Positions 12,426 to 60,246 of a stretch of 64,000 nucleotides of DNA are shown piece by piece. Under the pieces are notes generated by a model. The model worked only from the letters and a program-made list of their open reading frames with translations, did not search any database and was not told the origin of the DNA. The DNA comes from an uncultured Oscillospiraceae bacterium. Lineage in GTDB: Bacteria > Bacillota > Clostridia > Oscillospirales > Oscillospiraceae. Positions within the stretch are counted from its first letter, which is position 1. Each line of letters starts with the position of its first letter. The stretch lies in assembly GCA_947625965.1 (NCBI GenBank), contig CANQQO010000001.1:60596-124595 (forward strand), written 5' to 3'. The translations under genes were made by a program, and so were the position numbers.

Positions 12426-12550
12426 CCGGCAAGAAAAACGCTCCGGGACCCCAAAGGGTTCCCGGAGACGCTTTTTTGGGGCCGAGCGGCCACGTTCGGC
12501 TTTTGCGGAGAAAAACGGAAACCGGCATGGCGGAGACCGCCATGCCGGTT

Positions 12551-12751
12551 GCAGCTTGTCGAATCGCCTTTCCGAGTTTGCCGTCCGCAGACGGCAAACC
12601 CAATTCAATCATTTTTTGCCAGGGCGTGTACCTGGTAAAAAATACCTCTCAGGCTGAGAGTGTGCGAGCCGGGGGCCTTGCCCCGGCGAGTGCGCGGTTC
12701 AGCCTGCGATCCCCTCCAAATGGGAGCCCAGCAAAGCGGGTCCCATTTGGG
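12551..12751 (+). repeat. multi-hairpin intergenic repeat, copy A (forward orientation, lacks the last hairpin module)
   Basis: Contains TTTGCCGTCcgcaGACGGCAAA, GCCAGGgcgtgtaCCTGGT, the GCCGGGGGCcttGCCCCGGC stem and CCAAATGGGA...TCCCATTTGG. Flanked by identical 30-bp hairpins at 12521-12550 and 12754-12783. Confidence 0.85.
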
Positions 12752-12788
12752 GCACCGGCATGGCGGAGACCGCCATGCCGGTTGGTTT

Positions 12789-15197
12789 TCATTGTCTTAC
12801 ATAGTCCATGCAGATCCAGCCGTTGGATACGCGGCCCCACTGGACGCCGGATACCTCCGTGGTCTCCAGGACCACGACCTTGCTGCCGTAGTACAGATAG
12901 CCCACGATCTCGTTGCCTACGCCGGGGGCCTTCCGAACGTGGAGGGCGTCGGCGATCACCGTGCCGGTGATGGTCGCGGGGGCGGAAGGCTCAGTGGACC
13001 CCGTGCCGCCGCCGGACTCGCCGGTGGACCCGCCGTCAGTCCCGCCGCCGGAGCCGCCGCTCGCGGCGTCTAGCTGGATGTAGTCCATGCTGACCCAGCC
13101 CTTCTCCATCTTGCCCCAGAGGGTGCCGCCGGAGGACTTCGTCTCCGTGATGGTGACCTTGGTGTTGGGATTCAGATAGGCCACAATGGAATAGCTGGTG
13201 CCGGGGCCGCTGCGGACATTGAGATAGTCGCTGACCTTCACGGTGCCCGTCTGGGTCTTGGCCGGGTCCTCAGGGGCGGAGGCCGCGTCCAGCTTGACAT
13301 AGTCCAGGCTGATCCAGCCCTTGTCGATCTTGCCCCAGACCATGCTGCCAACGGTGGTCTGCTCCGTAATGGTGACCTTGGTCCCGTCGGTCAGGTAGCC
13401 CAGGATGGAATAGCTGGTGCCGGGACCGCTGCGAATCCGCAGGCTCCCCGCGTTCACCACAGTGCCGGTGACGGAGGCGCCGCCCTGGCTGCCCGTGTTG
13501 GTCCCGCCGCCGGAGGCCGCGTCCAGCTTGACATAGTCCAGGCTGATCCAGCCCTTATCGATCTTGCCCCAGACCATGCTGCCCGTGGTCTGCTGGGCCA
13601 GGATCTCCACCCGGTCCCCCGTGTTCAGGTAGCCCAGAACGGAATAGCCCGTGCTGGGGCCGCTGCGGATCCGCAGATCGTCGGTGATGACCGTGCCCAT
13701 GACCGTCTTGGGCTTCTCCGGCTCCGCGGGCTTGGTGGGCTCCGTCGGGTCCGTGACCGGGGGATCGGTGGGCTTGGTCGGTTCCTCGGGTTTCGTCTCT
13801 TCGGGTTTGGTTTCCTCCGGTTTTGTCTCTTCCGGCTTCGTCTCCTCGGGCTTGGTTTCCTCAGGCTTCGTCTCCTCGGGGACCGGCTCCTGAGAGGGCA
13901 GGGGACCGTCCAGCTTGACATAGTCCAGGCAGACCCAGCCGCTGCTGATCTTGCCCCAGAGGGCGCCGCCGGCGGACTGATGGTCCGTCACCTCCACCCG
14001 GTCCTGATAGGCCAGGTAGCCCACTACGGCGTTGCCCGTGCCCGGGCCGGAGCGGATGCAAAGACCGCTGGGCGCCGTCACCGTGCCCGTGACGCTCTTG
14101 GCGGGGGCGGGAGGGGTGGTCTCGCCGCCGCTGGGAGCGCCGTTGTAGACCTCGTCAAAATTGGTATAGGACAGGGCGATCCAGCCGTCGCTGAACTTGC
14201 CCCACTGGTAGCCGTCGGCCCGGTGGACGGCGGTGATGGTCAGCTTTTGGCCGTCATAGCCCTTGCCCACGATGCCGTAGTCCAGGCCGGGGCCCTCCCG
14301 CAGATTCACCCAATCGGCCTCGACGAGGACCTCCACCGGCGTTATAGCGGTGCCCTGGGGGACCGTTTCGCTGGTGTCGATGGCCCGGCCGTCCTGGGAC
14401 CAGTGGGCGTAGAGGGTGGCTTCCCGCTGGTTCTCGCCCAGCTCGGTGATCTTGGTGCCGCCGATGCGGGAGGAGTACCAGCCCTCAAACTGATATTCGA
14501 TGGTCACGCCGTTTTCGCTGACGATGTATGTAGCCTCGGCCATGGGCTCGGCCCCGGTGCCGGGCTCATAGCCCTGAACAGGGGCGTTGGAGGTGCCGCC
14601 GCAGGCGTTGTAGAACACGTAGCTGTACTGCTGGGGGGCGACATTGGAGTAGACCCCGTTGAGGTACATATTGGCCTCCTTCAGCCGCCGCTCTACCAGG
14701 CCCCGGTTGGGCAGGCCGCCGGCGTTGCACCACTGGGTGATCCAGTACAGGAAGGTGTTCCCCGTGGCTCCGCTGCGGACGGCGTCCCGGAAATTGCCCA
14801 CGCCGTTCAGATTGGTCCAGCCGTAGCCGCAGTTGTAGGTGAACAGCAGCAGGGCGTCGAACTGATTCTGGCTCAGGGAAAGGCCGCAGGCGTTGATAAA
14901 TTCGTTGAGACTCTCTTCAAAATCGGCCACATAGGTCCGCAGGAGCCAGTCCGCCTCCGCCTCGGTGATGCCGGTCTCCGCCAGGCGCTCGGCCTCGTCC
15001 TCGGGGACCCGGGAGCCGTAGCCCACGGACCACTGGGAGTAGTCCAGGTAGGGGTACTGGCAGAAGCCCTCCATCTCCTTGAGCAGGGCAATGCACTCCT
15101 CGCTGGTAGTCATATTGGATTCGGCCTTGGCCCGAGCGGGCGCCAGCCCCAAAAGCAGCACCATTGACAGCACGATGCACAGGATTCTTCGTTTCAT
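12789..15197 (-). CDS. secreted cell-wall hydrolase: GH24-type lysozyme, Listeria-Bacteroides-type repeat, multiple SH3b domains
   Basis: Signal peptide MKRRILCIVLSMVLLLGLAPARA. Phage-lysozyme-like EGFCQYPYLDYSQWSVGYG...FDALLLFTYNCG. Six copies of LNVRSGPG...WGK..GW..DYV (SH3b). Confidence 0.9.
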   Translation of the reverse strand: MKRRILCIVLSMVLLLGLAPARAKAESNMTTSEECIALLKEMEGFCQYPYLDYSQWSVGYGSRVPEDEAERLAETGITEAEADWLLRTYVADFEESLNEFINACGLSLSQNQFDALLLFTYNCGYGWTNLNGVGNFRDAVRSGATGNTFLYWITQWCNAGGLPNRGLVERRLKEANMYLNGVYSNVAPQQYSYVFYNACGGTSNAPVQGYEPGTGAEPMAEATYIVSENGVTIEYQFEGWYSSRIGGTKITELGENQREATLYAHWSQDGRAIDTSETVPQGTAITPVEVLVEADWVNLREGPGLDYGIVGKGYDGQKLTITAVHRADGYQWGKFSDGWIALSYTNFDEVYNGAPSGGETTPPAPAKSVTGTVTAPSGLCIRSGPGTGNAVVGYLAYQDRVEVTDHQSAGGALWGKISSGWVCLDYVKLDGPLPSQEPVPEETKPEETKPEETKPEETKPEETKPEETKPEEPTKPTDPPVTDPTEPTKPAEPEKPKTVMGTVITDDLRIRSGPSTGYSVLGYLNTGDRVEILAQQTTGSMVWGKIDKGWISLDYVKLDAASGGGTNTGSQGGASVTGTVVNAGSLRIRSGPGTSYSILGYLTDGTKVTITEQTTVGSMVWGKIDKGWISLDYVKLDAASAPEDPAKTQTGTVKVSDYLNVRSGPGTSYSIVAYLNPNTKVTITETKSSGGTLWGKMEKGWVSMDYIQLDAASGGSGGGTDGGSTGESGGGTGSTEPSAPATITGTVIADALHVRKAPGVGNEIVGYLYYGSKVVVLETTEVSGVQWGRVSNGWICMDYVRQ
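13782..13880 (-). repeat. 15-bp in-frame tandem repeat encoding (PEETK)x6 linker
   Basis: Protein reads PEETKPEETKPEETKPEETKPEETKPEETKPEE. Degenerate 15-nt units are visible in the DNA. Confidence 0.85.
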
Positions 15198-27759: not shown

Positions 27760-27936
27760 AAGCTGGTGACATTCGTAGCGCGTGATCGACGCCTCCTTTC
27801 TCAGTAACCCTAAGCTAATTCTATCACAGAGGCGGCTTTTTTTCCACTGGAAAAAAATATTTCTGCGTTTTGCACAAAAAGAAAAGCTATTTTTTATGCA
27901 AAACAGGCATTGCCGGAAGACAGCGGCAATGCCTAT

Positions 27937-28174
27937 TACAGTTTTTCAAACAGCCTTTCCGGGTTTGCCGTCCGCAGACGGCAAACCCATTTCGATCCTT
28001 TTTTGCCAGGGCGTGTACCTGGCAAAAAATACCTTACAGGCGGCAGTAGTGCGAGCTGTGCGCCGGAGGCGCACAGCGAGTGCGCGGGTCAGCCTGCGAT
28101 CCCCTCCAAATGGGAGCCCAGCGAAGCGGGTCCCATTTGGGAGGTTGTCAAAAACCTTCGTTTTTGACAACCTC
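27937..28174 (+). repeat. multi-hairpin intergenic repeat, copy B (forward orientation)
   Basis: Same module order as copy A plus the terminal GTCAAAAACcttcGTTTTTGAC hairpin. The variable stem here is CTGTGCGCCggaGGCGCACAG. Flanked by related hairpins at 27906-27933 and 28179-28209. Confidence 0.85.
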
Positions 28175-28219
28175 AAACGGGCATTGCCGGAAAAACTGCG
28201 GCAATGCCCGTTTGGCGCG

Positions 28220-31207
28220 TTATTCCTCGGTATCCAAAGTCTCTACCATGGTGAATTCCTGACGGGTGACGAAAGCGCCGTCGAAGTAGACGCTGACGCT
28301 GTACTCGCCGGGGGTGTCCGGCAGGGCGGGGATGCTCAGCTCACAGTCGCCGCCGTGGAGCATGGCGACCCAGGTGCGGACCTGGGTGTTGACGCTGACA
28401 AGATTGCCCGCGCTGTCCCGGATGATGTAAAGGGTGGTGATCTCGTCCCAGTCGAAGCTATACTTTGTATAGGTCCGCATGAGGATGGCGGCCTTCTGCC
28501 CCAGGGCGAAGGTGCTGGTGTAGTCGGACCTTGGCACGTCGTCGTACTCCCAGAACTCCTCGTCCGGAGCCAGGGCCATGGTGAAGGTGAAGTCCTCCGC
28601 CGTCAGGGTGTAGTCGTTGAAAGCGGGGGCGGCGGGAGTCTGGGTGGTGTACTCTCCCTGGAAGACGGTGCCGCCGTCCGCCGCCTGGATGGTGAAGGTA
28701 TACCGGCACTCGGGAATGACGGGGGTCAGGATGGCGGAATTGGTGTCGGTCCGCAGGACCTCCTCCCGCTCCGGCACCGCGGTGCCGTCCAGGGCGGTGA
28801 AGGAATAGAGGATCAGCCAGCCGCCGTCGGGGGCCGTGCCGGTAAAGTCCCAGCTCAGGTCGATCTGCTTGGGATCGGCGTGGTCTGCCTGGAAATTGGA
28901 AATGGTGTGGCTGTTGGCGGTGATGGAGGTCCGGCTGCCCACCATCATGCCCGGGGCGGTGACCTCCACGGTATAGGCCGCGGCGGTGTCGATGCCCGGG
29001 AAGACGGCCTCATAGACCCCAGGATCGGCGGCGGTGGGCTGCTCCACGGAGAGGGTCTGGTCGAAGCCCTGATCGTTGTAGCAGTGGACCTGCCAGCTCT
29101 CCACGGTAACGCCCTGGGGGGCGGTCCACCGAGCCATGAGAGACTGATTGTTGCAGCTCACGATCTCCAGCTCCTGGGCGTAGATCAGGGGCTGGACCGA
29201 ATAGGTCAGGGTGTCGCTGCCGGCGGTGAAGAGGCCGGAATCCGGCTCCAGGCGGAAGGTATAGTCCTTGCCCACCGTCAGGCCGGTGACGGTGACCATG
29301 TGGCCCGTAAAGGTGACAGACGCCTCCTCCTCGCCCTCGGCCTGGTACAGGAGCTTCCAGTTCTCCGGCTCCCGGCCGTCGATGGTGAAGTTGAGGATCA
29401 CGGCTCCCTCCTCCGCGCCGGAGGTGGCGGTGAAGCTGACGATGTTGATCTGGGCGGGGGTGGTGTAGTTGCAGGAGGTGGTGCCCATGAGCTGGTGGAA
29501 GCCGTCGATCTTCACCTGGATGGTGTAGATGGTATTGGGGGTCAGGTGGTCGAAGTGGGCCTCGCCGTTTTGGAGGCGGGCGGTCTGGGCGTTGCCGTAG
29601 GTGTCCGTCCGGACCACGCTGAGGAGGCTCTCGTCCGTCTCGGTGGTGACCTTCACGGTCATCTCCGTCTTCTCGCCGGTGACGTCCAGGGCCAGGATGG
29701 TTTGCAGATAGTAATTGTTGTAGAACCAGTGCCCCGCGAACAGCAGCGCCGCGACGACCAGCACCAGGCACAGCAGCACGATGGGAGCCTTGCTCTTTTT
29801 CTTGGGCTTCTTCTCCTCGGCGGGGTAGTACTTCCGTCCGCTCCGGGCGGGAGCGGGCCGGCTCTTGACCGGCGCGGAGGGGCCGGCTCGCCTGACAGGA
29901 GGCCGCTGGCCCTTCTGGGCCGGGGACTGCGGCGGCTCCTTCTCCACGGGGATGGGCTCCGGCATGGGCACGTCGATGGGCTCCGGCGCCACCACGGGCT
30001 CCGGGGTCTGATGGGCGATGAGCTCGTCCACCTGGGACAGGATGTCCGTCGTCTCGTCGGTCAGGCCGCCGTATTCCTGATCGGGGTCCGCGTCGTCGGA
30101 GGCAAGAGCGTCCAGGAACGCAAAGTCCTCCGCCTCCACCCGGGGGGCGGGCGCCTCGCCGGAGTCGGGGTCGGACTCGGTGGGATCGCCGTCCTCATCC
30201 TGGAAGGAGATCTCCCCCTCGGCCATCTGTTTCAGCAGGGCCTCCAGCATGGCCTCCGCGCTGGTCTGGGCGGGCGCCTCTTCCTCCTGGGCCGGGGGCT
30301 CCTGGTCGGTCATGGGATCGTCGTTGACGCCGTTGCGCTGCATATAGGCCACGATCTCCTGGCCCATATCGATGGGATCGGTCCAGCGGGCCTCGGGATC
30401 GGGATCGATGGCCTTGAGGATGATCTTGCTCATTTCCTCGTCGGCGAACTTAGGCGGGGACAGGGGCGTGTCGGGGGCTCGGCCGGTGAAGGGCAGCACG
30501 CCTCCGTTGTATGCCTGATACAGGATCATGCCCGCGGCGTAGATATCCAGGGTGCCGTTCAGGGTGGACATGGCGTCCTTGATCTCCGGCGGGGTGTAGG
30601 CGCTGATGTATTTATCCGGCAGGGAGGCATATTTCAGCGACGAATCATTCACGAAGCCCAGATCGCCGATGCGGTATTCCCGCTCCGGGGAGATGAAGAC
30701 GTTCCCCGGCTTCAGGTCCGCGTACAGGTATCCGGCCCGGCGGCACACGGCCAGGGCGGCGCAGAGGTCCAGCCCCAGATTCACCGCGCCCAGGTAGGTC
30801 ATGGTCTCCTTTCGGAAGAACCGCTCCAGGCTCCGGCGGTAGGGACTCAGCAGGTACACGTCGTACCCCACCTCTCCCTCCATGGGAACGATCTGGTAGC
30901 TGTCGTAGGTCAGAAAGCCCTCCACTCGGGACAGCCGCAGCAGGGTCTTGGCCTCCTTCACGGTCCCGTCGGCCAGCTCCCGGAAGTAGCTCAGGGCGGC
31001 GGCCTCGTTTTCGTAGGCGCCGGCCAGCAGCAGGGCCTGGGTCTGGACCTGTGACGCGGGGATGGAAATGATTTTTACAATATATTTCTTATCAGTCGCC
31101 TTGTTGATGGCGGGGCAGCAGCGCACGCCATGATGCTCGCTCATGGGCTCGCCCATGAAGAAGCCGTCCAGCATGGGGCTGATCAGCTTTGGCTCTGACA
31201 ATTCCAT
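28220..31207 (-). CDS. membrane Ser/Thr protein kinase-like protein with large Ig/Fn3-like ectodomain (995 aa)
   Basis: Kinase core: YIVKII (Lys), YADLKPGNVF, IGDLGF, YTPPE. Acidic/Pro-rich linker, one TM (IVLLCLVLVVAALLFAG), then about 500 aa of beta-rich repeats. AAGGAGG RBS. Confidence 0.85.
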   Translation of the reverse strand: MELSEPKLISPMLDGFFMGEPMSEHHGVRCCPAINKATDKKYIVKIISIPASQVQTQALLLAGAYENEAAALSYFRELADGTVKEAKTLLRLSRVEGFLTYDSYQIVPMEGEVGYDVYLLSPYRRSLERFFRKETMTYLGAVNLGLDLCAALAVCRRAGYLYADLKPGNVFISPEREYRIGDLGFVNDSSLKYASLPDKYISAYTPPEIKDAMSTLNGTLDIYAAGMILYQAYNGGVLPFTGRAPDTPLSPPKFADEEMSKIILKAIDPDPEARWTDPIDMGQEIVAYMQRNGVNDDPMTDQEPPAQEEEAPAQTSAEAMLEALLKQMAEGEISFQDEDGDPTESDPDSGEAPAPRVEAEDFAFLDALASDDADPDQEYGGLTDETTDILSQVDELIAHQTPEPVVAPEPIDVPMPEPIPVEKEPPQSPAQKGQRPPVRRAGPSAPVKSRPAPARSGRKYYPAEEKKPKKKSKAPIVLLCLVLVVAALLFAGHWFYNNYYLQTILALDVTGEKTEMTVKVTTETDESLLSVVRTDTYGNAQTARLQNGEAHFDHLTPNTIYTIQVKIDGFHQLMGTTSCNYTTPAQINIVSFTATSGAEEGAVILNFTIDGREPENWKLLYQAEGEEEASVTFTGHMVTVTGLTVGKDYTFRLEPDSGLFTAGSDTLTYSVQPLIYAQELEIVSCNNQSLMARWTAPQGVTVESWQVHCYNDQGFDQTLSVEQPTAADPGVYEAVFPGIDTAAAYTVEVTAPGMMVGSRTSITANSHTISNFQADHADPKQIDLSWDFTGTAPDGGWLILYSFTALDGTAVPEREEVLRTDTNSAILTPVIPECRYTFTIQAADGGTVFQGEYTTQTPAAPAFNDYTLTAEDFTFTMALAPDEEFWEYDDVPRSDYTSTFALGQKAAILMRTYTKYSFDWDEITTLYIIRDSAGNLVSVNTQVRTWVAMLHGGDCELSIPALPDTPGEYSVSVYFDGAFVTRQEFTMVETLDTEE

Positions 31208-41258: not shown

Positions 41259-41549
41259 ATGGAAAGACATCTATTTGGCTATCGGGTGGGTCTGGACCCC
41301 GAGGCAACAAGAGCCTGGTATCGAATCGGGGACCGCTGGGACTGCGGCTGCGGCCACTGTCGGAATTTTCTGGCCCTGGCCAGGCACCGCCAACTGCCGG
41401 GGGAGGTCCTGGAAGAACCGGACAAATGTAGAAACGGCATGGCGACCCGCCATGCCGTTCCCGAGGCTGTCAAAAACAAAGGTTTTTGGCAGCCTCCCAA
41501 ATGGGACCCCCTTCGCTGGGTTCCCATTTGGAGGGGAATCCCAGGCTGA
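41259..41549 (+). pseudogene. small Cys-rich ORF whose 3' third is supplied by repeat copy C (possibly a disrupted gene)
   Basis: MERHLFGYRVGLDPEATRAWYRIGDRWDCGCGHCRNF... reads through a hairpin (41433-41459) into the repeat. No clear RBS. Confidence 0.3.
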
Positions 41550-41667
41550 CCCGCGCACGCGTTCAGACCAGAAATATTTTCCGCCACGTACACGCCGCAG
41601 CGGAAAATGATTGAATCTCTTTGCAGCCTGCTTATCGGCAAACGCGGAAAGGCGATTTGATAAGCTG
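41463..41667 (-). repeat. multi-hairpin intergenic repeat, copy C (reverse orientation, most diverged)
   Basis: Retains GTCAAAAAC-type and CCAAATGGGA/TCCCATTTGG hairpins and the GATTGAAT spacer. The first hairpin is degraded. Flanking hairpins (41433-41459 and 41668-41690) differ from each other. Confidence 0.75.
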
Positions 41668-41701
41668 CCCCCGCCGGGTCCCGGCGGGGGTGAGCGTTTT
41701 G

Positions 41702-41830
41702 TTACCGGCTGTTCCGGCTCTGGCTGCTCTGGTTCTGGCTGTTCTGGTTCTGATTCTGGCTGTTCTGATTCTGGTTCTGGTTCTGGTTGCTGTTCTTGTT
41801 CTGGTTCTGATTCTGATTCTGGTTATTCAT
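41702..41830 (-). CDS. Asn/Gln-repeat small protein (42 aa) downstream of spoVAE
   Basis: GGAGGA sits 9 nt before the ATG. MNNQNQNQNQNKNSNQNQNQNQNSQNQNQNSQNQSSQSRNSR*. Same strand as the spoVA genes, 63 nt after spoVAE. Confidence 0.5.
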   Translation of the reverse strand: MNNQNQNQNQNKNSNQNQNQNQNSQNQNQNSQNQSSQSRNSR

Positions 41831-43421: not shown

Positions 43422-44003
43422 CTATGAAAGTGCCTCCGCGATGACTTGGAGCCCGATCTCCAGGCCCCGGCAAATTTGCGGGAAGGGCACGGCGGTTTCC
43501 CTGGGTACATGGAGAAAGCCGCCCAGTCGGGGCCGGCCCCCCGCCGCTATGGCGGACAGGAGCCCGTACATCACCCGGTTGCAGACGAAGGTCCCGGCGG
43601 AGCCGCTGACCCGCGCCGGGATCCCGGCGGCGGACATGGCCTCCGCCATTTTTTCTACAGGCAGATCGGAGAACAGGCTCTCCGGCCCGCCGGGCAGGAT
43701 GGGCTGGCCGTCGCGAAAGACGCCGGCGTTGTCGGCAATTTTTGACGCCATACGGTTCACCGCCCTCCGCTCCGGGGTCAGGCAGTCCCGGTTCGCCGCC
43801 AGTCCGACGCAGAGGACGGCGTCGGGGTCCTCCGCCTCCATCAGAGACAGAAGGACCGGCATGACTCCGTCGTACTCTACTGGCAGGCGGGCGGTGACGA
43901 TCTCCGCCCCGAAAAGCGCGGCGGGAAGCGCCCGCACCGCCTCCCAGGAGACGTTTCTCGTTTCCCCGCCGAAGGGCTCGAAGCCCGTTACCAGGAATCG
44001 CAT
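43422..44003 (-). CDS. pcp: pyroglutamyl-peptidase I
   Basis: MRFLVTGFEPFGGETRN... and SAGTFVCN (Cys nucleophile context). Confidence 0.95.
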   Translation of the reverse strand: MRFLVTGFEPFGGETRNVSWEAVRALPAALFGAEIVTARLPVEYDGVMPVLLSLMEAEDPDAVLCVGLAANRDCLTPERRAVNRMASKIADNAGVFRDGQPILPGGPESLFSDLPVEKMAEAMSAAGIPARVSGSAGTFVCNRVMYGLLSAIAAGGRPRLGGFLHVPRETAVPFPQICRGLEIGLQVIAEALS

Positions 44004-44049
44004 TTTTCTCCTTTCTACAACGGGATCCCCGCCTCCGGCGGGGGATCGT

Positions 44050-44283
44050 CAGCTTGTCAAATAACCTTTCGGAGTTTGCCGTCCGCAGACGGCAAACCCA
44101 ATTCAATCATTTTTTGCCAGGGCGTGTACCTGGCAAAAAATACCTTACAGGCTGAGAGTGTGCGAGCCGGGGGCCTTGCCCCCGGCGAGTGCGCGGTTCA
44201 GCCTGCAATCCCCTCCAAATGGAAGCCCAGCGAAGCGGGTTCCATTTGGGAGGCTTTCAAAAACCTTCGTTTTTGACAGCCTC
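44050..44283 (+). repeat. multi-hairpin intergenic repeat, copy D (forward orientation, complete)
   Basis: Differs from copy A at only a handful of positions over the shared core. Includes the terminal hairpin. Flanked by related hairpins at 44024-44047 and 44286-44308. Confidence 0.85.
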
Positions 44284-44311
44284 AAGATCCCCCGCCGGAG
44301 GGGGGATCGGA

Positions 44312-45328
44312 TCAGCGTTTGAGCTCCGGCACCATTTTCTGGTAGTAGGGGAGCAGACCGATCTTGTCCGGGGTGTGCTCGGGAAGCTGCCAGAAATCGT
44401 AGCCGGGATAGTCGTTGCCCTCGATGATGGCGGGACCGGTGGGAGTGATGCAGACATCCCAGCCGATGTAGCGGAATTCGGGGATCTCCATGGCAGCCTT
44501 GCGGCACAGCTCAATGGCCTCCTTCACGAAGGGCACCTGATAGCCCAGCAGGGGCACCCCGGTGTAGGGATGGGTGTCGTAGTTGATGAGCTTGGAGGTG
44601 TGGGCCACGCCCACGATCTTCCCGGTCTCCGGGTCCAGGGGACAGCAGAGGCCGTCGTTTTCCATATTGTCCACGAATTTGCCGCAATTGCCCATCTTCA
44701 CCACCTGATAGACACAGTGGGCCTCCCCCTGGGCCACCAGGGTCACGATCCTGAGGGAGTTGATGGACAGGGGATAGAGCCTGGACAGGGCCTCATGCTG
44801 CTTCAGCTCCTCCTCCACCGTGCCGAAGCCCTTTTCCTTCACGTAGGCGTACATGGCGTGCAGGTCGGGAAAATCGGCGGTTTTCAGTTTTTCAATGCCC
44901 TTGCCGCTCTCGCCCACTTGGGGCTTGGCGAAGAGAACGGGAAAACGCTGGGCAAAGGCTATAAATTCCGCCTCGGCGGCGGTGGTCATGTCCAGGTACT
45001 CCCGGCCCAGGTAGGAGGCGAACCGGGCGTAAAACTCGTTTTTCCGGTCAAAGATATGGGTGTACCTGGGATCGTTGCAGATGGTCACCAGCTTTTTGTT
45101 CCACAGACGGGTGACATAGGTCTTCCTCTGGGCGGCATTCATATCATAGAAGGCGAAGATCAGGTAGTCATAGTACCCGGCTCCGTAGCGAATGGCGCAG
45201 TTGAGGATGTCAAAGAACAGGAAGATCCTGCTTTTCCCGCTCTTTTCGTGGGCCCGGCGAATCACGTCAAAGAATTTGGACAGCCGGACGCCCTTGAGGA
45301 TGTGCAGATAATAGCGCAGCTTCTCCAT
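44312..45328 (-). CDS. sugar-transfer-associated ATP-grasp family protein
   Basis: N-terminal FFDILNCAIRYGAGYYDYLIFAFYDM and overall layout resemble the ATP-grasp_ST family. Assignment is by eye. Confidence 0.75.
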   Translation of the reverse strand: MEKLRYYLHILKGVRLSKFFDVIRRAHEKSGKSRIFLFFDILNCAIRYGAGYYDYLIFAFYDMNAAQRKTYVTRLWNKKLVTICNDPRYTHIFDRKNEFYARFASYLGREYLDMTTAAEAEFIAFAQRFPVLFAKPQVGESGKGIEKLKTADFPDLHAMYAYVKEKGFGTVEEELKQHEALSRLYPLSINSLRIVTLVAQGEAHCVYQVVKMGNCGKFVDNMENDGLCCPLDPETGKIVGVAHTSKLINYDTHPYTGVPLLGYQVPFVKEAIELCRKAAMEIPEFRYIGWDVCITPTGPAIIEGNDYPGYDFWQLPEHTPDKIGLLPYYQKMVPELKR

Positions 45329-55626: not shown

Positions 55627-55666
55627 AAACGACTTTAGGTGGCAGACACGAAAGTGCCTGCCACCT

Positions 55667-55897
55667 GAGACTGTCAAAACTTTCGTTTTTGACAGTCTCC
55701 CAAATGGGACCCGCTTCGCTGGGCTCCCATTTGGAGGGGATTGCAGGCTGACCCGCGCACTCGCCGGTCTTTCGCCCGGCTCGTACTACTGCCGCCTGTA
55801 AGGTATTTTTTACCAGGTACACGCCCTGGCAAAAAAGGATCGAAATGGGTTTACCGTCTGCGGACGGCAAACGCGAAAAGGCGATTCGACAAACTGG
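55667..55897 (-). repeat. multi-hairpin intergenic repeat, copy E (reverse orientation, complete)
   Basis: All modules are present. The variable stem is GCCGGgcgaaagaCCGGC. Flanking hairpins 55637-55666 and 55898-55925 differ from each other. Confidence 0.85.
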
Positions 55898-55938
55898 ATC
55901 TGCCCCGCCGGGAGGCGGGGCAGATTTTTGGGATACTA

Positions 55939-59925: not shown

Positions 59926-59945
59926 CAAGACCGGGGACAGTGGAG

Positions 59946-60122
59946 GCCGTCAAAGGACTTCGTTTTTGACAGCTTCCCAAATGGGACCCGCTTCGCTGGG
60001 CCCCATTTGGAGGGAACCTCAGGCTGAGAGGTGTTTTCTGTCGGGTACGCGCCCTGGCAAATATCAAAATGTATCTGCCGTCTGCGGACGGCAAACGCTG
60101 CGCGGCTTTTTTGTCAAGCTGG
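59946..60122 (-). repeat. multi-hairpin intergenic repeat, copy F (reverse orientation, lacks the variable middle stem)
   Basis: Retains the terminal hairpin, CCAAATGGG/CCCATTTGG and GACGGCAAA/TTTGCCGTC modules. Flanked by a hairpin at 60122-60151 and a partial copy of it at 59929-59951. Confidence 0.8.
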
Positions 60123-60246
60123 ACCGGGGACGGCGGGGGCCGTCCCCGGTCTTTGCGGAAAACGCACAAATTTGAGGGGAAGAATCAGGGGTATCTATTG
60201 CTTTTTGCCCTTTTTTGTCTACTTTTCAAATCGTTTGTTTTTCCGC

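Follow-up and report, generated by a model that had tools for sequence, protein, structure and literature searches.

The stretch of DNA analysed here, 64,000 nucleotides of an uncultured Oscillospiraceae bacterium (GenBank assembly GCA_947625965.1, contig CANQQO010000001.1, positions 60,596 to 124,595; hereafter the window), carries six copies, A to F, of a short repeat family of 179-236 bp (alignment A1), to which an nhmmer search added none. All six copies are intergenic, the hairpins that flank them are only a few bases away from a stop codon, and only mechanical open reading frames of 85-182 amino acids overlap them. The copies and their flanking hairpins are as follows, with strands given for the elements and the neighbouring genes.

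12521-12551: left hairpin copy of copy A; 31 bp, perfect duplicate
12552-12753, + strand: element copy A; 202 bp, CAGCTTGTCGAATCGCC...CCCATTTGGGGC, without terminal hairpin 5
12754-12784: right hairpin copy of copy A; the lysozyme/SH3 gene (12789-15197, - strand) has its stop codon 4 nt away
27901-27933: left hairpin copy of copy B; AAACAGGCATTGCCGgaagacagCGGCAATGCC
27939-28174, + strand: element copy B; full length, five internal hairpins
28175-28209: right hairpin copy of copy B; the kinase/fn3 gene (28220-31207, - strand) has its stop codon 10 nt away
41433-41459: flanking hairpin of copy C; AACGGCATGGCGacccGCCATGCCGTT, no relation to the hairpin on the opposite side
41463-41667, - strand: element copy C; most diverged copy, hairpin-3 module missing
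41668-41690: flanking hairpin of copy C; CCCCCGCCGGGtcCCGGCGGGGG; its orthologue in an element-free relative is the terminator of the small N/Q-rich gene
44024-44047: hairpin copy of copy D; beside the ribosome-binding site and start of pcp (43422-44003, - strand)
44050-44283, + strand: element copy D; full length
44286-44308: hairpin copy of copy D; the ATP-grasp gene (44312-45328, - strand) has its stop codon 3 nt away
55637-55666: flanking hairpin of copy E; AGGTGGCAGacac..gtgCCTGCCACCT, no relation to its partner
55667-55896, - strand: element copy E; from the alignment of the six copies
55898-55925: flanking hairpin of copy E; ATCTGCCCCGCCgggaGGCGGGGCAGAT, then a T-tract
59929-59942: partial duplicate at copy F; 10-14 nt, one arm of the 60122-60151 hairpin, beginning 3 nt past the stop codon of the GH4 gene
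59943-60121, - strand: element copy F; hairpin-3 module missing
60122-60151: full terminator hairpin of copy F; GACCGGGGACggcgggGGCCGTCCCCGGTC, then TTT

For copy A, the 30-mer ACCGGCATGGCGGAGACCGCCATGCCGGTT occurs on the + strand exactly twice, at 12521-12550 and 12754-12783, with 0 occurrences expected from 100 dinucleotide-preserving shuffles. One further G extends this direct repeat to a perfect 31 bp (12521-12551 and 12754-12784), so that the identical 30-nt hairpins reported around copy A in a preliminary description of the window are real and one base longer. Each repeat unit is a hairpin whose stem has 13-14 bp and whose loop has 3 nt. Among 20 kb scanned for terminators, the left hairpin with its left flank was the top-scoring terminator of the minus strand (tail TCCGTTTTTC) and the right hairpin with its right flank that of the plus strand (tail TGGTTTTCAT); joined, these two halves form one bidirectional terminator between convergent genes.

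When the 45 nt to the left of each window copy were compared with the 45 nt to its right, the within-locus scores were 62 for A, 46 for B, 41 for D and 25 for F, as compared to a cross-locus background of 8-20. These scores bear out the preliminary description in that the hairpins are specific to each locus and match within it. For copy B, the hairpins that it placed at 27906-27933 and 28179-28209 are present as parts of a direct repeat of ~33-34 nt, AAAC(A/G)GGCATTGCCG..CGGCAATGCC, at 27901-27933 and 28175-28208. The two hairpins have the same stems and unlike loops, in keeping with the view that within-locus differences sit mostly in the loops, and in addition differ by one base change at the base of the stem, just outside it, which that view had missed. 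For copy D, the bracketing hairpins also stand, whereas their mutual inversion had gone unnoticed: in inverted alignment 23 of 24 positions agree, with one indel, and the score is 41, as compared to 24 in direct alignment, indicating that the loop of one D copy was flipped. The hairpin next to pcp (44024-44047) has the loop orientation of the single hairpin of the related species discussed below. For copy F, the full hairpin at 60122-60151 is as described, whereas the "partial copy" assigned to 59929-59951 is mostly the end of the element; the repeated flank is limited to GACCGGGGAC(AGTG) at 59929-59942, and the adjoining GAGGCCGTC (59943-59951) belongs to the element, whose terminus has the consensus GAGGCTGTC. 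Copies C and E lie between convergent genes with two unrelated hairpins each, as had been stated, with the correction that neither carries a duplication. One cross-locus pair exceeded the background, namely A-left (12521-12550) and C-right (41433-41459), at 33-34 versus at most 20. These two hairpins share CGGCATGGCG...CGCCATGCCG, which may be chance among GC-rich palindromes or a hairpin occasionally carried with the element.

The window organism is rare in public data, and its nearest relatives show 66-68% identity in Pcp. The gene order pheST-ireB-ATP-grasp-pcp-spoVAD-spoVAC is kept in two of them, GCA_947627745.1 (L007) and GCA_947625945.1 (L035). At site D, both relatives have an element-free ATP-grasp/pcp spacer of 47 bp, which contains one hairpin, GGGCCCCCGC-loop-GCGGGGGCC, followed by the ribosome-binding site of pcp; in L007 the hairpin has one extra paired base (C). 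The window has 308 bp at this site, a hairpin, a 238-bp element and a second hairpin, and the element was not detected in the relatives' loci L007-L012. The element is therefore mobile, and the occurrence of a single hairpin at an empty site, which the preliminary description had named as a check on its proposal, is observed in two syntenic species, that is, at the species level. For sites E and F, approached through GH4 homologues, the gene order is not conserved in the relatives; for sites A and B, approached through aroC homologues, the contigs of the closest relative are at most 3 kb long and end short of both sites.

A BLAST search of plasmid records located the family in NZ_AP023416.1 (Vescimonas fastidiosa MM35), NZ_AP023417.1 (V. 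fastidiosa) and NZ_AP023421.1 (Pusillibacter faecalis). In this search the 860,917 bp of NZ_AP023416.1 carried it at 40 places or more; the whole record holds 33 full copies, along with fragments and internally deleted mini-derivatives, and some of the copies are fairly young, with up to 97.5% identity; no empty site for a Vescimonas copy was found in PLSDB, which contains no close relative. Set against a null of 1056 cross-locus pairs (mean flank score, 13.3; 99th percentile, 21), 11 of the 33 full copies scored above the 99th percentile (binomial p ~1e-14). The younger subfamily (mean pairwise identity, 91%) accounts for 10 of these, out of its 13 copies, and the older one (84%) for 1 out of 20 (Fisher p = 3e-5). 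The systematic flanking duplication for which the preliminary description would have all genomic copies examined is thus found in V. fastidiosa.

The duplicated palindromes of Vescimonas are 25-42 bp long, and all 11 differ in sequence; examples are AAAAACGCACCC-ATGC-GGGTGCGTTTTT and the perfect 28-bp repeat CCCCGACCCGCGTTTTCGCGGGTCGGGG. In 7 of the 11 copies the repeat equals the whole palindrome to within ~3 nt, including the A/T tracts where these are able to pair, and in the remaining four the aligned repeat runs 8-15 nt past the palindrome (201305, 376847 and 693281) or covers only part of it (474201). Direct alignment scored higher than inverted alignment for nine of the Vescimonas cases, as for window copies A and B, the other two being inverted or ambiguous. 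Most duplicated copies have constant junctions, [DR]CAG(C/T)GTGTCAAAAAAGCCT...TTTTTCGACAG + 4 nt [DR], where DR is the direct repeat, and the Vescimonas element boundaries read CAG(C/T)GTGTCAAAAAAGCC... and ...TTTTTCGACAGTCAC. An A-rich stretch (at least 3 A in the last four bases) lies directly to the left of the left repeat in 8 of the 11 cases. For copy 464670, the two hairpin copies differ by a compensatory change from A-T to G-C. Copy 145359, with loops TTCAA and TTGAA, is a possible second case of a flipped loop besides copy D.

A third organism is represented by the phage contig L040 (IMGVR_UViG_3300029684_000305), in which a family member with a diverged duplicated flanking hairpin lies directly downstream of a capsid gene. 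A portal protein is encoded on this contig and on a second one with the element, L041 (IMGVR_UViG_3300028886_003647), and L040 also encodes the capsid protein; structural phage genes only were seen on the two. Phages may spread the family between hosts. The results for Vescimonas and L040 indicate that the phenomenon is systematic, recurs across organisms and fades with the age of the copy.

Where the flanking genes are in tandem (window B, D and F; Vescimonas 376847, 474201 and 693281), the right end of the element, on the side of hairpin 5, is directed toward the stop codon of the upstream gene in six of six cases. In L040, where the downstream gene was not identified, the right end likewise points to the capsid gene's stop codon, which makes seven of seven (p = 0.016). 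In this orientation the element would be transcribed, in antisense, within the 3' untranslated region (UTR) of the upstream gene. The bias may stem from the mechanism of insertion or from selection.

The element itself runs from 5'-CAGCTTGTCAAA to TTTGACAGCCTC-3', or in a longer form from 5'-CAGCTTGTCAAATCGCC to TTTTTGACAGCCTC-3'. Its terminal inverted repeat is short and imperfect, ~10-13 nt (CAGCTTGTCAAA versus the reverse complement GAGGCTGTCAAA), with the core GCTGTCAAAAA, or TGTC(G)AAAAA in Vescimonas, and copy A is without the right one. Inside the ends are the modules hairpin 1 (GTTTGCCGTC-CGCA-GACGGCAAAC), hairpin 2 (TTTTTTGCCAGG-7 nt-CCTGGCAAAAAA), the hypervariable hairpin 3, hairpin 4 (CCTCCAAATGGG...CCCATTTGGGAGG) and the terminal hairpin 5, which holds the right inverted repeat together with an inverted copy of it. 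Copy A is without hairpin 5, and copies C and F are without hairpin 3. Mini-derivatives of ~85-105 bp, reduced by internal deletion to the left end, hairpin 1 and terminal hairpin 5, are found in NZ_AP023416.1 at 102959-103043, 181820-181907, 289560-289652, 318769-318849, 401033-401109, 740719-740824 and 752488-752594. In contigs from other samples (L001 930-981 and L002 870-924, compared with window 12660-12700), hairpin 3 of copy A is GCTGTGCGCCTCCGGCGTACAGC and not GCCGGGGGCCTTGCCCCGGC, which reflects either strain variation in this hypervariable module or an assembly chimera between copies at ~3x coverage.

Alignment A2, which combines window, Vescimonas (NZ_AP023416.1) and Pusillibacter copies, including L038 5985-6195, and thus covers three genera, gives 27 consensus pairs, of which 14 are kept via compensatory changes on both sides. 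These pairs indicate that hairpins 1-3 are constrained as structures, and the sequence comparison suggests that the fold may be under selection, either for transposition as single-stranded DNA or as RNA in 3' UTRs. Hairpin 4 (CCTCCAAATGGGAGCCCAGCGAAGCGGGTCCCATTTGGGAGG) is found in the window at 28105-28147, 44212-44254, 41497-41539, 55700-55742 and 59977-60017 and is an extra module of the window lineage, absent from the Vescimonas and Pusillibacter versions. It occurs alone in other organisms, as a solo copy (L013 8422-8457) and as a partial module (L004 2523-2592), and at ~7240-7310 of L041 its apical loop GCCCAGCGAAGCGGG is kept on a different, covarying stem. Scans with the hairpin-4 core returned one match in 185,579 species genomes (L004) and one in JGI metagenomes (L013), neither of which is an empty site. 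Possibly, hairpin 4 is a small palindromic unit in its own right that lies nested within the element.

Covariance models of Rfam 15 gave no match at the gathering score in the whole window and none up to E = 5 on copy D, and a Vescimonas copy returned only sub-threshold, terminator-like noise. A known RNA family was rejected on this basis, there being no meaningful Rfam match at any threshold.

Judged as a MITE (miniature inverted-repeat transposable element), the family is small and multicopy, and target duplications are present in A, B, D, partly in F and in 11 of 33 Vescimonas copies, with the atypical property that they have the length of a palindrome (14-42 bp). An empty orthologous site is found at D, in related species only, and no autonomous partner has come to light in the parts of V. 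fastidiosa that were read. On balance, the repeat is probably a non-autonomous, MITE-like, non-coding transposable element of ~170-235 bp, and the paired hairpins are likely to be a long target duplication of a pre-existing terminator-like hairpin. The latter reading, already put forward in the preliminary description, is supported by the single-hairpin empty sites and by the palindrome-length repeats in V. fastidiosa.

In the mechanism that we propose, the target would be a DNA structure and not a sequence, namely GC-rich palindromes, mostly intrinsic terminators just past stop codons. Two strand transfers would take place at the two feet of the palindrome, most simply if it were extruded as a cruciform, in which the feet lie side by side. 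Gap repair would then copy the whole palindrome of 23-42 bp, including pairing A/T tracts, to give the product [hairpin][element][hairpin], in which each neighbour gene would retain a hairpin; because the outer A/T tracts remain attached, terminators would survive on both strands. The two hairpin copies would subsequently diverge, in the loops first and in the stems by compensatory substitution, which would account for the mismatch in older copies (C, E and the older Vescimonas subfamily). Such divergence under selection for stem pairing is plausible because the copies at Vescimonas 464670 differ by a compensatory change. Recognition of a cruciform and a staggered-cut geometry would fit the variable, palindrome-bound length of the duplication, which is not what a transposase with a fixed stagger would be expected to produce on B-form DNA. 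The enzyme is presumably a DDE transposase acting in trans, possibly of the IS1182 family.

Several observations weigh against this interpretation. The flank scores of copies C and E (12) fall within the cross-locus background of 8-20, 22 of the 33 Vescimonas copies have no detectable duplication, and that the duplication has decayed in C, E and the older copies is an assumption. At site C, two different hairpins with 11 nt between them are already present in the element-free relative, so the unlike pair in the window may be original. The empty sites at D lie at species-level distance (~66-68% Pcp identity), not at strain level, and same-species contigs from other samples, obtained by an exact-protein look-up, were all filled or broken inside the repeat, with no empty site. 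The mutual inversion of the D hairpins is not predicted by simple target duplication and needs a later inversion of the loop. The terminal inverted repeat is weak, being short and imperfect, and the right end of copy A (12744-12753, ...CCCATTTGGGGC) is missing the ~35-nt hairpin 5 with the right inverted repeat in spite of the perfect 31-bp duplication; either hairpin 5 was deleted soon after insertion or the copy moved without a canonical right end. Finally, neither an autonomous partner nor a DDE transposase turned up in NZ_AP023416.1 (861 kb) or in the 50 kb read from the start of NZ_AP023417.1; the gene table used omits pseudogenes. The annotation of NZ_AP023416.1 (pMM35_01) lists a single transposase, an IS200/IS605 tnpA within a Tn916-like element; for pMM35_02 it lists no transposase in the first 50 kb, and none of the IS1182 type is listed in the parts of the V. 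fastidiosa replicons that were read. A search of V. fastidiosa for a left and a right end standing alone at a distance of a few kb from each other found none, and the window, whose genes were only partly screened against Pfam, has no further end-like matches.

The hairpins could alternatively be exchangeable terminal modules that travel with the element and whose two ends have been homogenised, as the preliminary description had offered as its second reading. Every window copy is hairpin-bracketed, the A hairpin resembles the C-right hairpin (the shared CGGCATGGCG noted above, 33-34 versus at most 20), and the element is modular, with hairpins 3, 4 and 5 present or absent by copy. However, the flanking hairpins differ between loci, as do all 11 duplicated palindromes of Vescimonas, homology between copies ends at the constant termini inside the hairpins, the outer A/T tracts are flank sequence that jointly completes a bidirectional terminator, and the element-free orthologous site already has one hairpin of related sequence. 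We therefore reject this alternative, as extremely improbable, on the grounds of the locus-specific hairpins and the single-hairpin empty sites. Nor is it much easier to regard the repeat as primarily a structured non-coding RNA or 3'-UTR module, multiplied by recombination, with the hairpin pairs as selected terminators and not insertion scars. This would agree with the compensation of the internal hairpins across three genera (14 of 27 pairs) and with the right end facing the upstream stop codon in the six tandem contexts and at the L040 capsid gene, which would imply 3'-UTR transcription, but selection cannot create sequence-identical repeats of 28-31 bp at unrelated loci, the presence or absence between species at a conserved site indicates insertion, and Rfam gave no match at any threshold. 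An RNA function is compatible with target duplication and no substitute for it, and as a full account it is to be given hardly any credence.

It is very improbable that, as in the IS1202 subgroup with its 27-28 bp, the duplication is the exceptionally long product of a fixed-stagger transposase for which the hairpins are only a preferred neighbourhood. Several duplications are near 27-31 bp (31 for A; 28 each for Vescimonas 534559, 145359 and 376847), and IS1202-family inverted repeats start with TGT (bioRxiv 10.1101/2022.12.17.520857), as does the core TGTC(G)AAAAA, but the length varies over ~14-42 bp and mostly tracks the extent of the palindrome, and the conserved sequence of the element includes the five bases outside TGTC, which makes its ends CAG... 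and ...CAC and not TGT...ACA. A structure-recognising integrase outside the DDE group, Cas1-like or another host or phage enzyme, would be suggested by the lack of an annotated DDE transposase in ~0.9 Mb of V. fastidiosa, even though fairly young copies, up to 97.5% identical, are found there, by the presence of copies in phage contigs and by the [palindrome][insert][palindrome] geometry, which is that of CRISPR spacer acquisition in excerpts of two sources (PMC5389526, PMC4872114). Terminal inverted repeats are, however, typical of DDE elements, the V. fastidiosa gene table is incomplete and does not cover the main chromosome, and no cas1-like gene or casposon turned up, although no search was aimed at them; we consider such an enzyme improbable. 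Still unlikely, in our estimate, is the wider proposal of an unrecognised integrase that reads cruciforms or terminator hairpins of any sequence and cuts at both feet, in fixed orientation to the upstream gene, combined with an element that the host keeps as a structured 3'-UTR RNA module; the retention by the host would explain the conservation of the hairpins across genera by compensatory changes and the presence in phages.

Three further candidates were tried and rejected. Site-specific recombination of the Xer or integrase type between identical palindromes does not apply, the palindromes being different at every locus; insertion into the loop of a hairpin would leave one arm on each side, where a complete hairpin is found; and the repetitive extragenic palindromic (REP) and BIME elements, which are RAYT-dependent and consist of one palindrome family with a GTAG or CGTC head, do not correspond to flanking hairpins that differ at every locus.

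Returning to target duplication at a structured site, the closest precedent is that of IS1272 and TnSha1 (IS1182 family) of staphylococci, which insert in stem-loops of 21-85 bp with arms of 5-17 bp and no sequence conservation, often confirmed terminators just downstream of genes, and may hit the same hairpin repeatedly (PMC4923244, PMC5678879). IS1272 removes part or all of the hairpin without duplication (PMC4923244, PMC5678879), whereas the model of Wan et al. includes a pathway, b of their Fig. 13, left untested there, in which the whole stem-loop is duplicated if joining occurs at the 5' feet (PMC5678879). Like IS1272, the present family selects its target by secondary structure in sequence-unrelated stem-loops or terminators (copy A and the Vescimonas copies). 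Unlike IS1272, it duplicates the whole hairpin, corresponding to pathway b, and is non-coding, ~200 bp long and hosted by Oscillospiraceae, and no IS1182-type transposase or matching insertion sequence was found here. By this analogy, the family is what may be called the duplicating counterpart of the hairpin-replacing IS1272. Some IS1182 members reportedly have palindromic targets in ISfinder, with direct repeats of 0-60 bp.

In the IS1202 subgroup, target duplications are fixed at 27-28 bp, and a sister subgroup targets imperfectly palindromic XerCD sites (bioRxiv 10.1101/2022.12.17.520857). The present family resembles the IS1202 subgroup in its unusually long target duplication and differs in the length of ~14-42 bp and in its termini, CAG... 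and ...CAC versus TGT. According to excerpts of two sources, Cas1-Cas2 makes staggered attacks at the borders of a repeat of ~28-37 bp, which is often palindromic and becomes duplicated around the insert, and has been linked to palindromic or cruciform acceptor DNA (PMC4872114, PMC5389526). The duplication of a palindrome on either side of an insert is thus shared with Cas1-Cas2 and casposons as those excerpts present them (PMC4872114, PMC5389526). CRISPR repeats are sequence-specific and situated beside a leader, whereas here any terminator-like palindrome serves, the insert is defined and has inverted repeats, and no cas genes are implicated.

The REP-targeting insertion sequences IS1397 and ISKpn1 insert inside one conserved REP family and generate short duplications. 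Insertion at extragenic palindromes is common to such elements (PMC1525189) and the present family, in contrast to which the palindromes here are unrelated in sequence and duplicated whole. The pneumococcal BOX, RUP and SPRITE repeats of the Firmicutes are likewise small, modular, hairpin-rich, intergenic, high-copy and clustered near terminators (PMC10969869), whereas no duplication of a whole target hairpin is reported in that review, and there is no sequence similarity. These comparisons place the repeat as a MITE-like family of Oscillospiraceae, not described before, whose target duplications are defined by structure and have the length of a palindrome.

Structure-guided insertion was previously known only in outline, from one insertion-sequence family. 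The structure-directed target choice of transposons is poorly understood, and the IS1272 case rests on a few dozen natural insertions that destroy their target. The present family offers numerous natural insertions that preserve the target, now in two copies, so that the sequence itself shows where the cuts fall with respect to the palindrome, and a sequence-independent, structure-guided integration reaction that is open to in vitro testing. If the proposed mechanism holds, a mobile element can colonise the 3' ends of genes with termination intact on both strands, which would explain pairs of look-alike terminators in tandem. Because duplications of 25-40 bp lie beyond the search range of standard MITE finders, such families are probably missed routinely.

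A few observations concern neighbouring features and other repeats. The gene of the 802-amino-acid lysozyme beside copy A contains four diverged repeats of ~166 nt that encode SH3_3 domains (13058-14063) and a 15-nt periodic linker repeat (13782-13886). Beside spoVAC, a gene of CAGAAC-type repeats (window 41696-41828, - strand) encodes a small N/Q-rich peptide, which in the relative L007 (7686-7869) has 41 amino acids; conserved in related species, this peptide may be a spore protein. The V. fastidiosa records NZ_AP023416.1 and NZ_AP023417.1, listed in PLSDB as pMM35_01 and pMM35_02, carry dnaA, dnaN, gyrAB, rpoBC, ribosomal protein operons and prfB and look like chromosome pieces or chromids labelled as plasmids; NZ_AP023416.1 is chromosomal because dnaA and ribosomal protein operons are aboard. 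A second, unrelated short repeat with the same terminus, ...TTTTTCGACACGC, is found in NZ_AP023416.1 at 177220-177340, at 196440-196525 and to the right of copy 693281, and it adjoins a hairpin that a copy of the main family adjoins as well, suggesting that several non-autonomous families share one enzyme and repeatedly hit the same hairpins.

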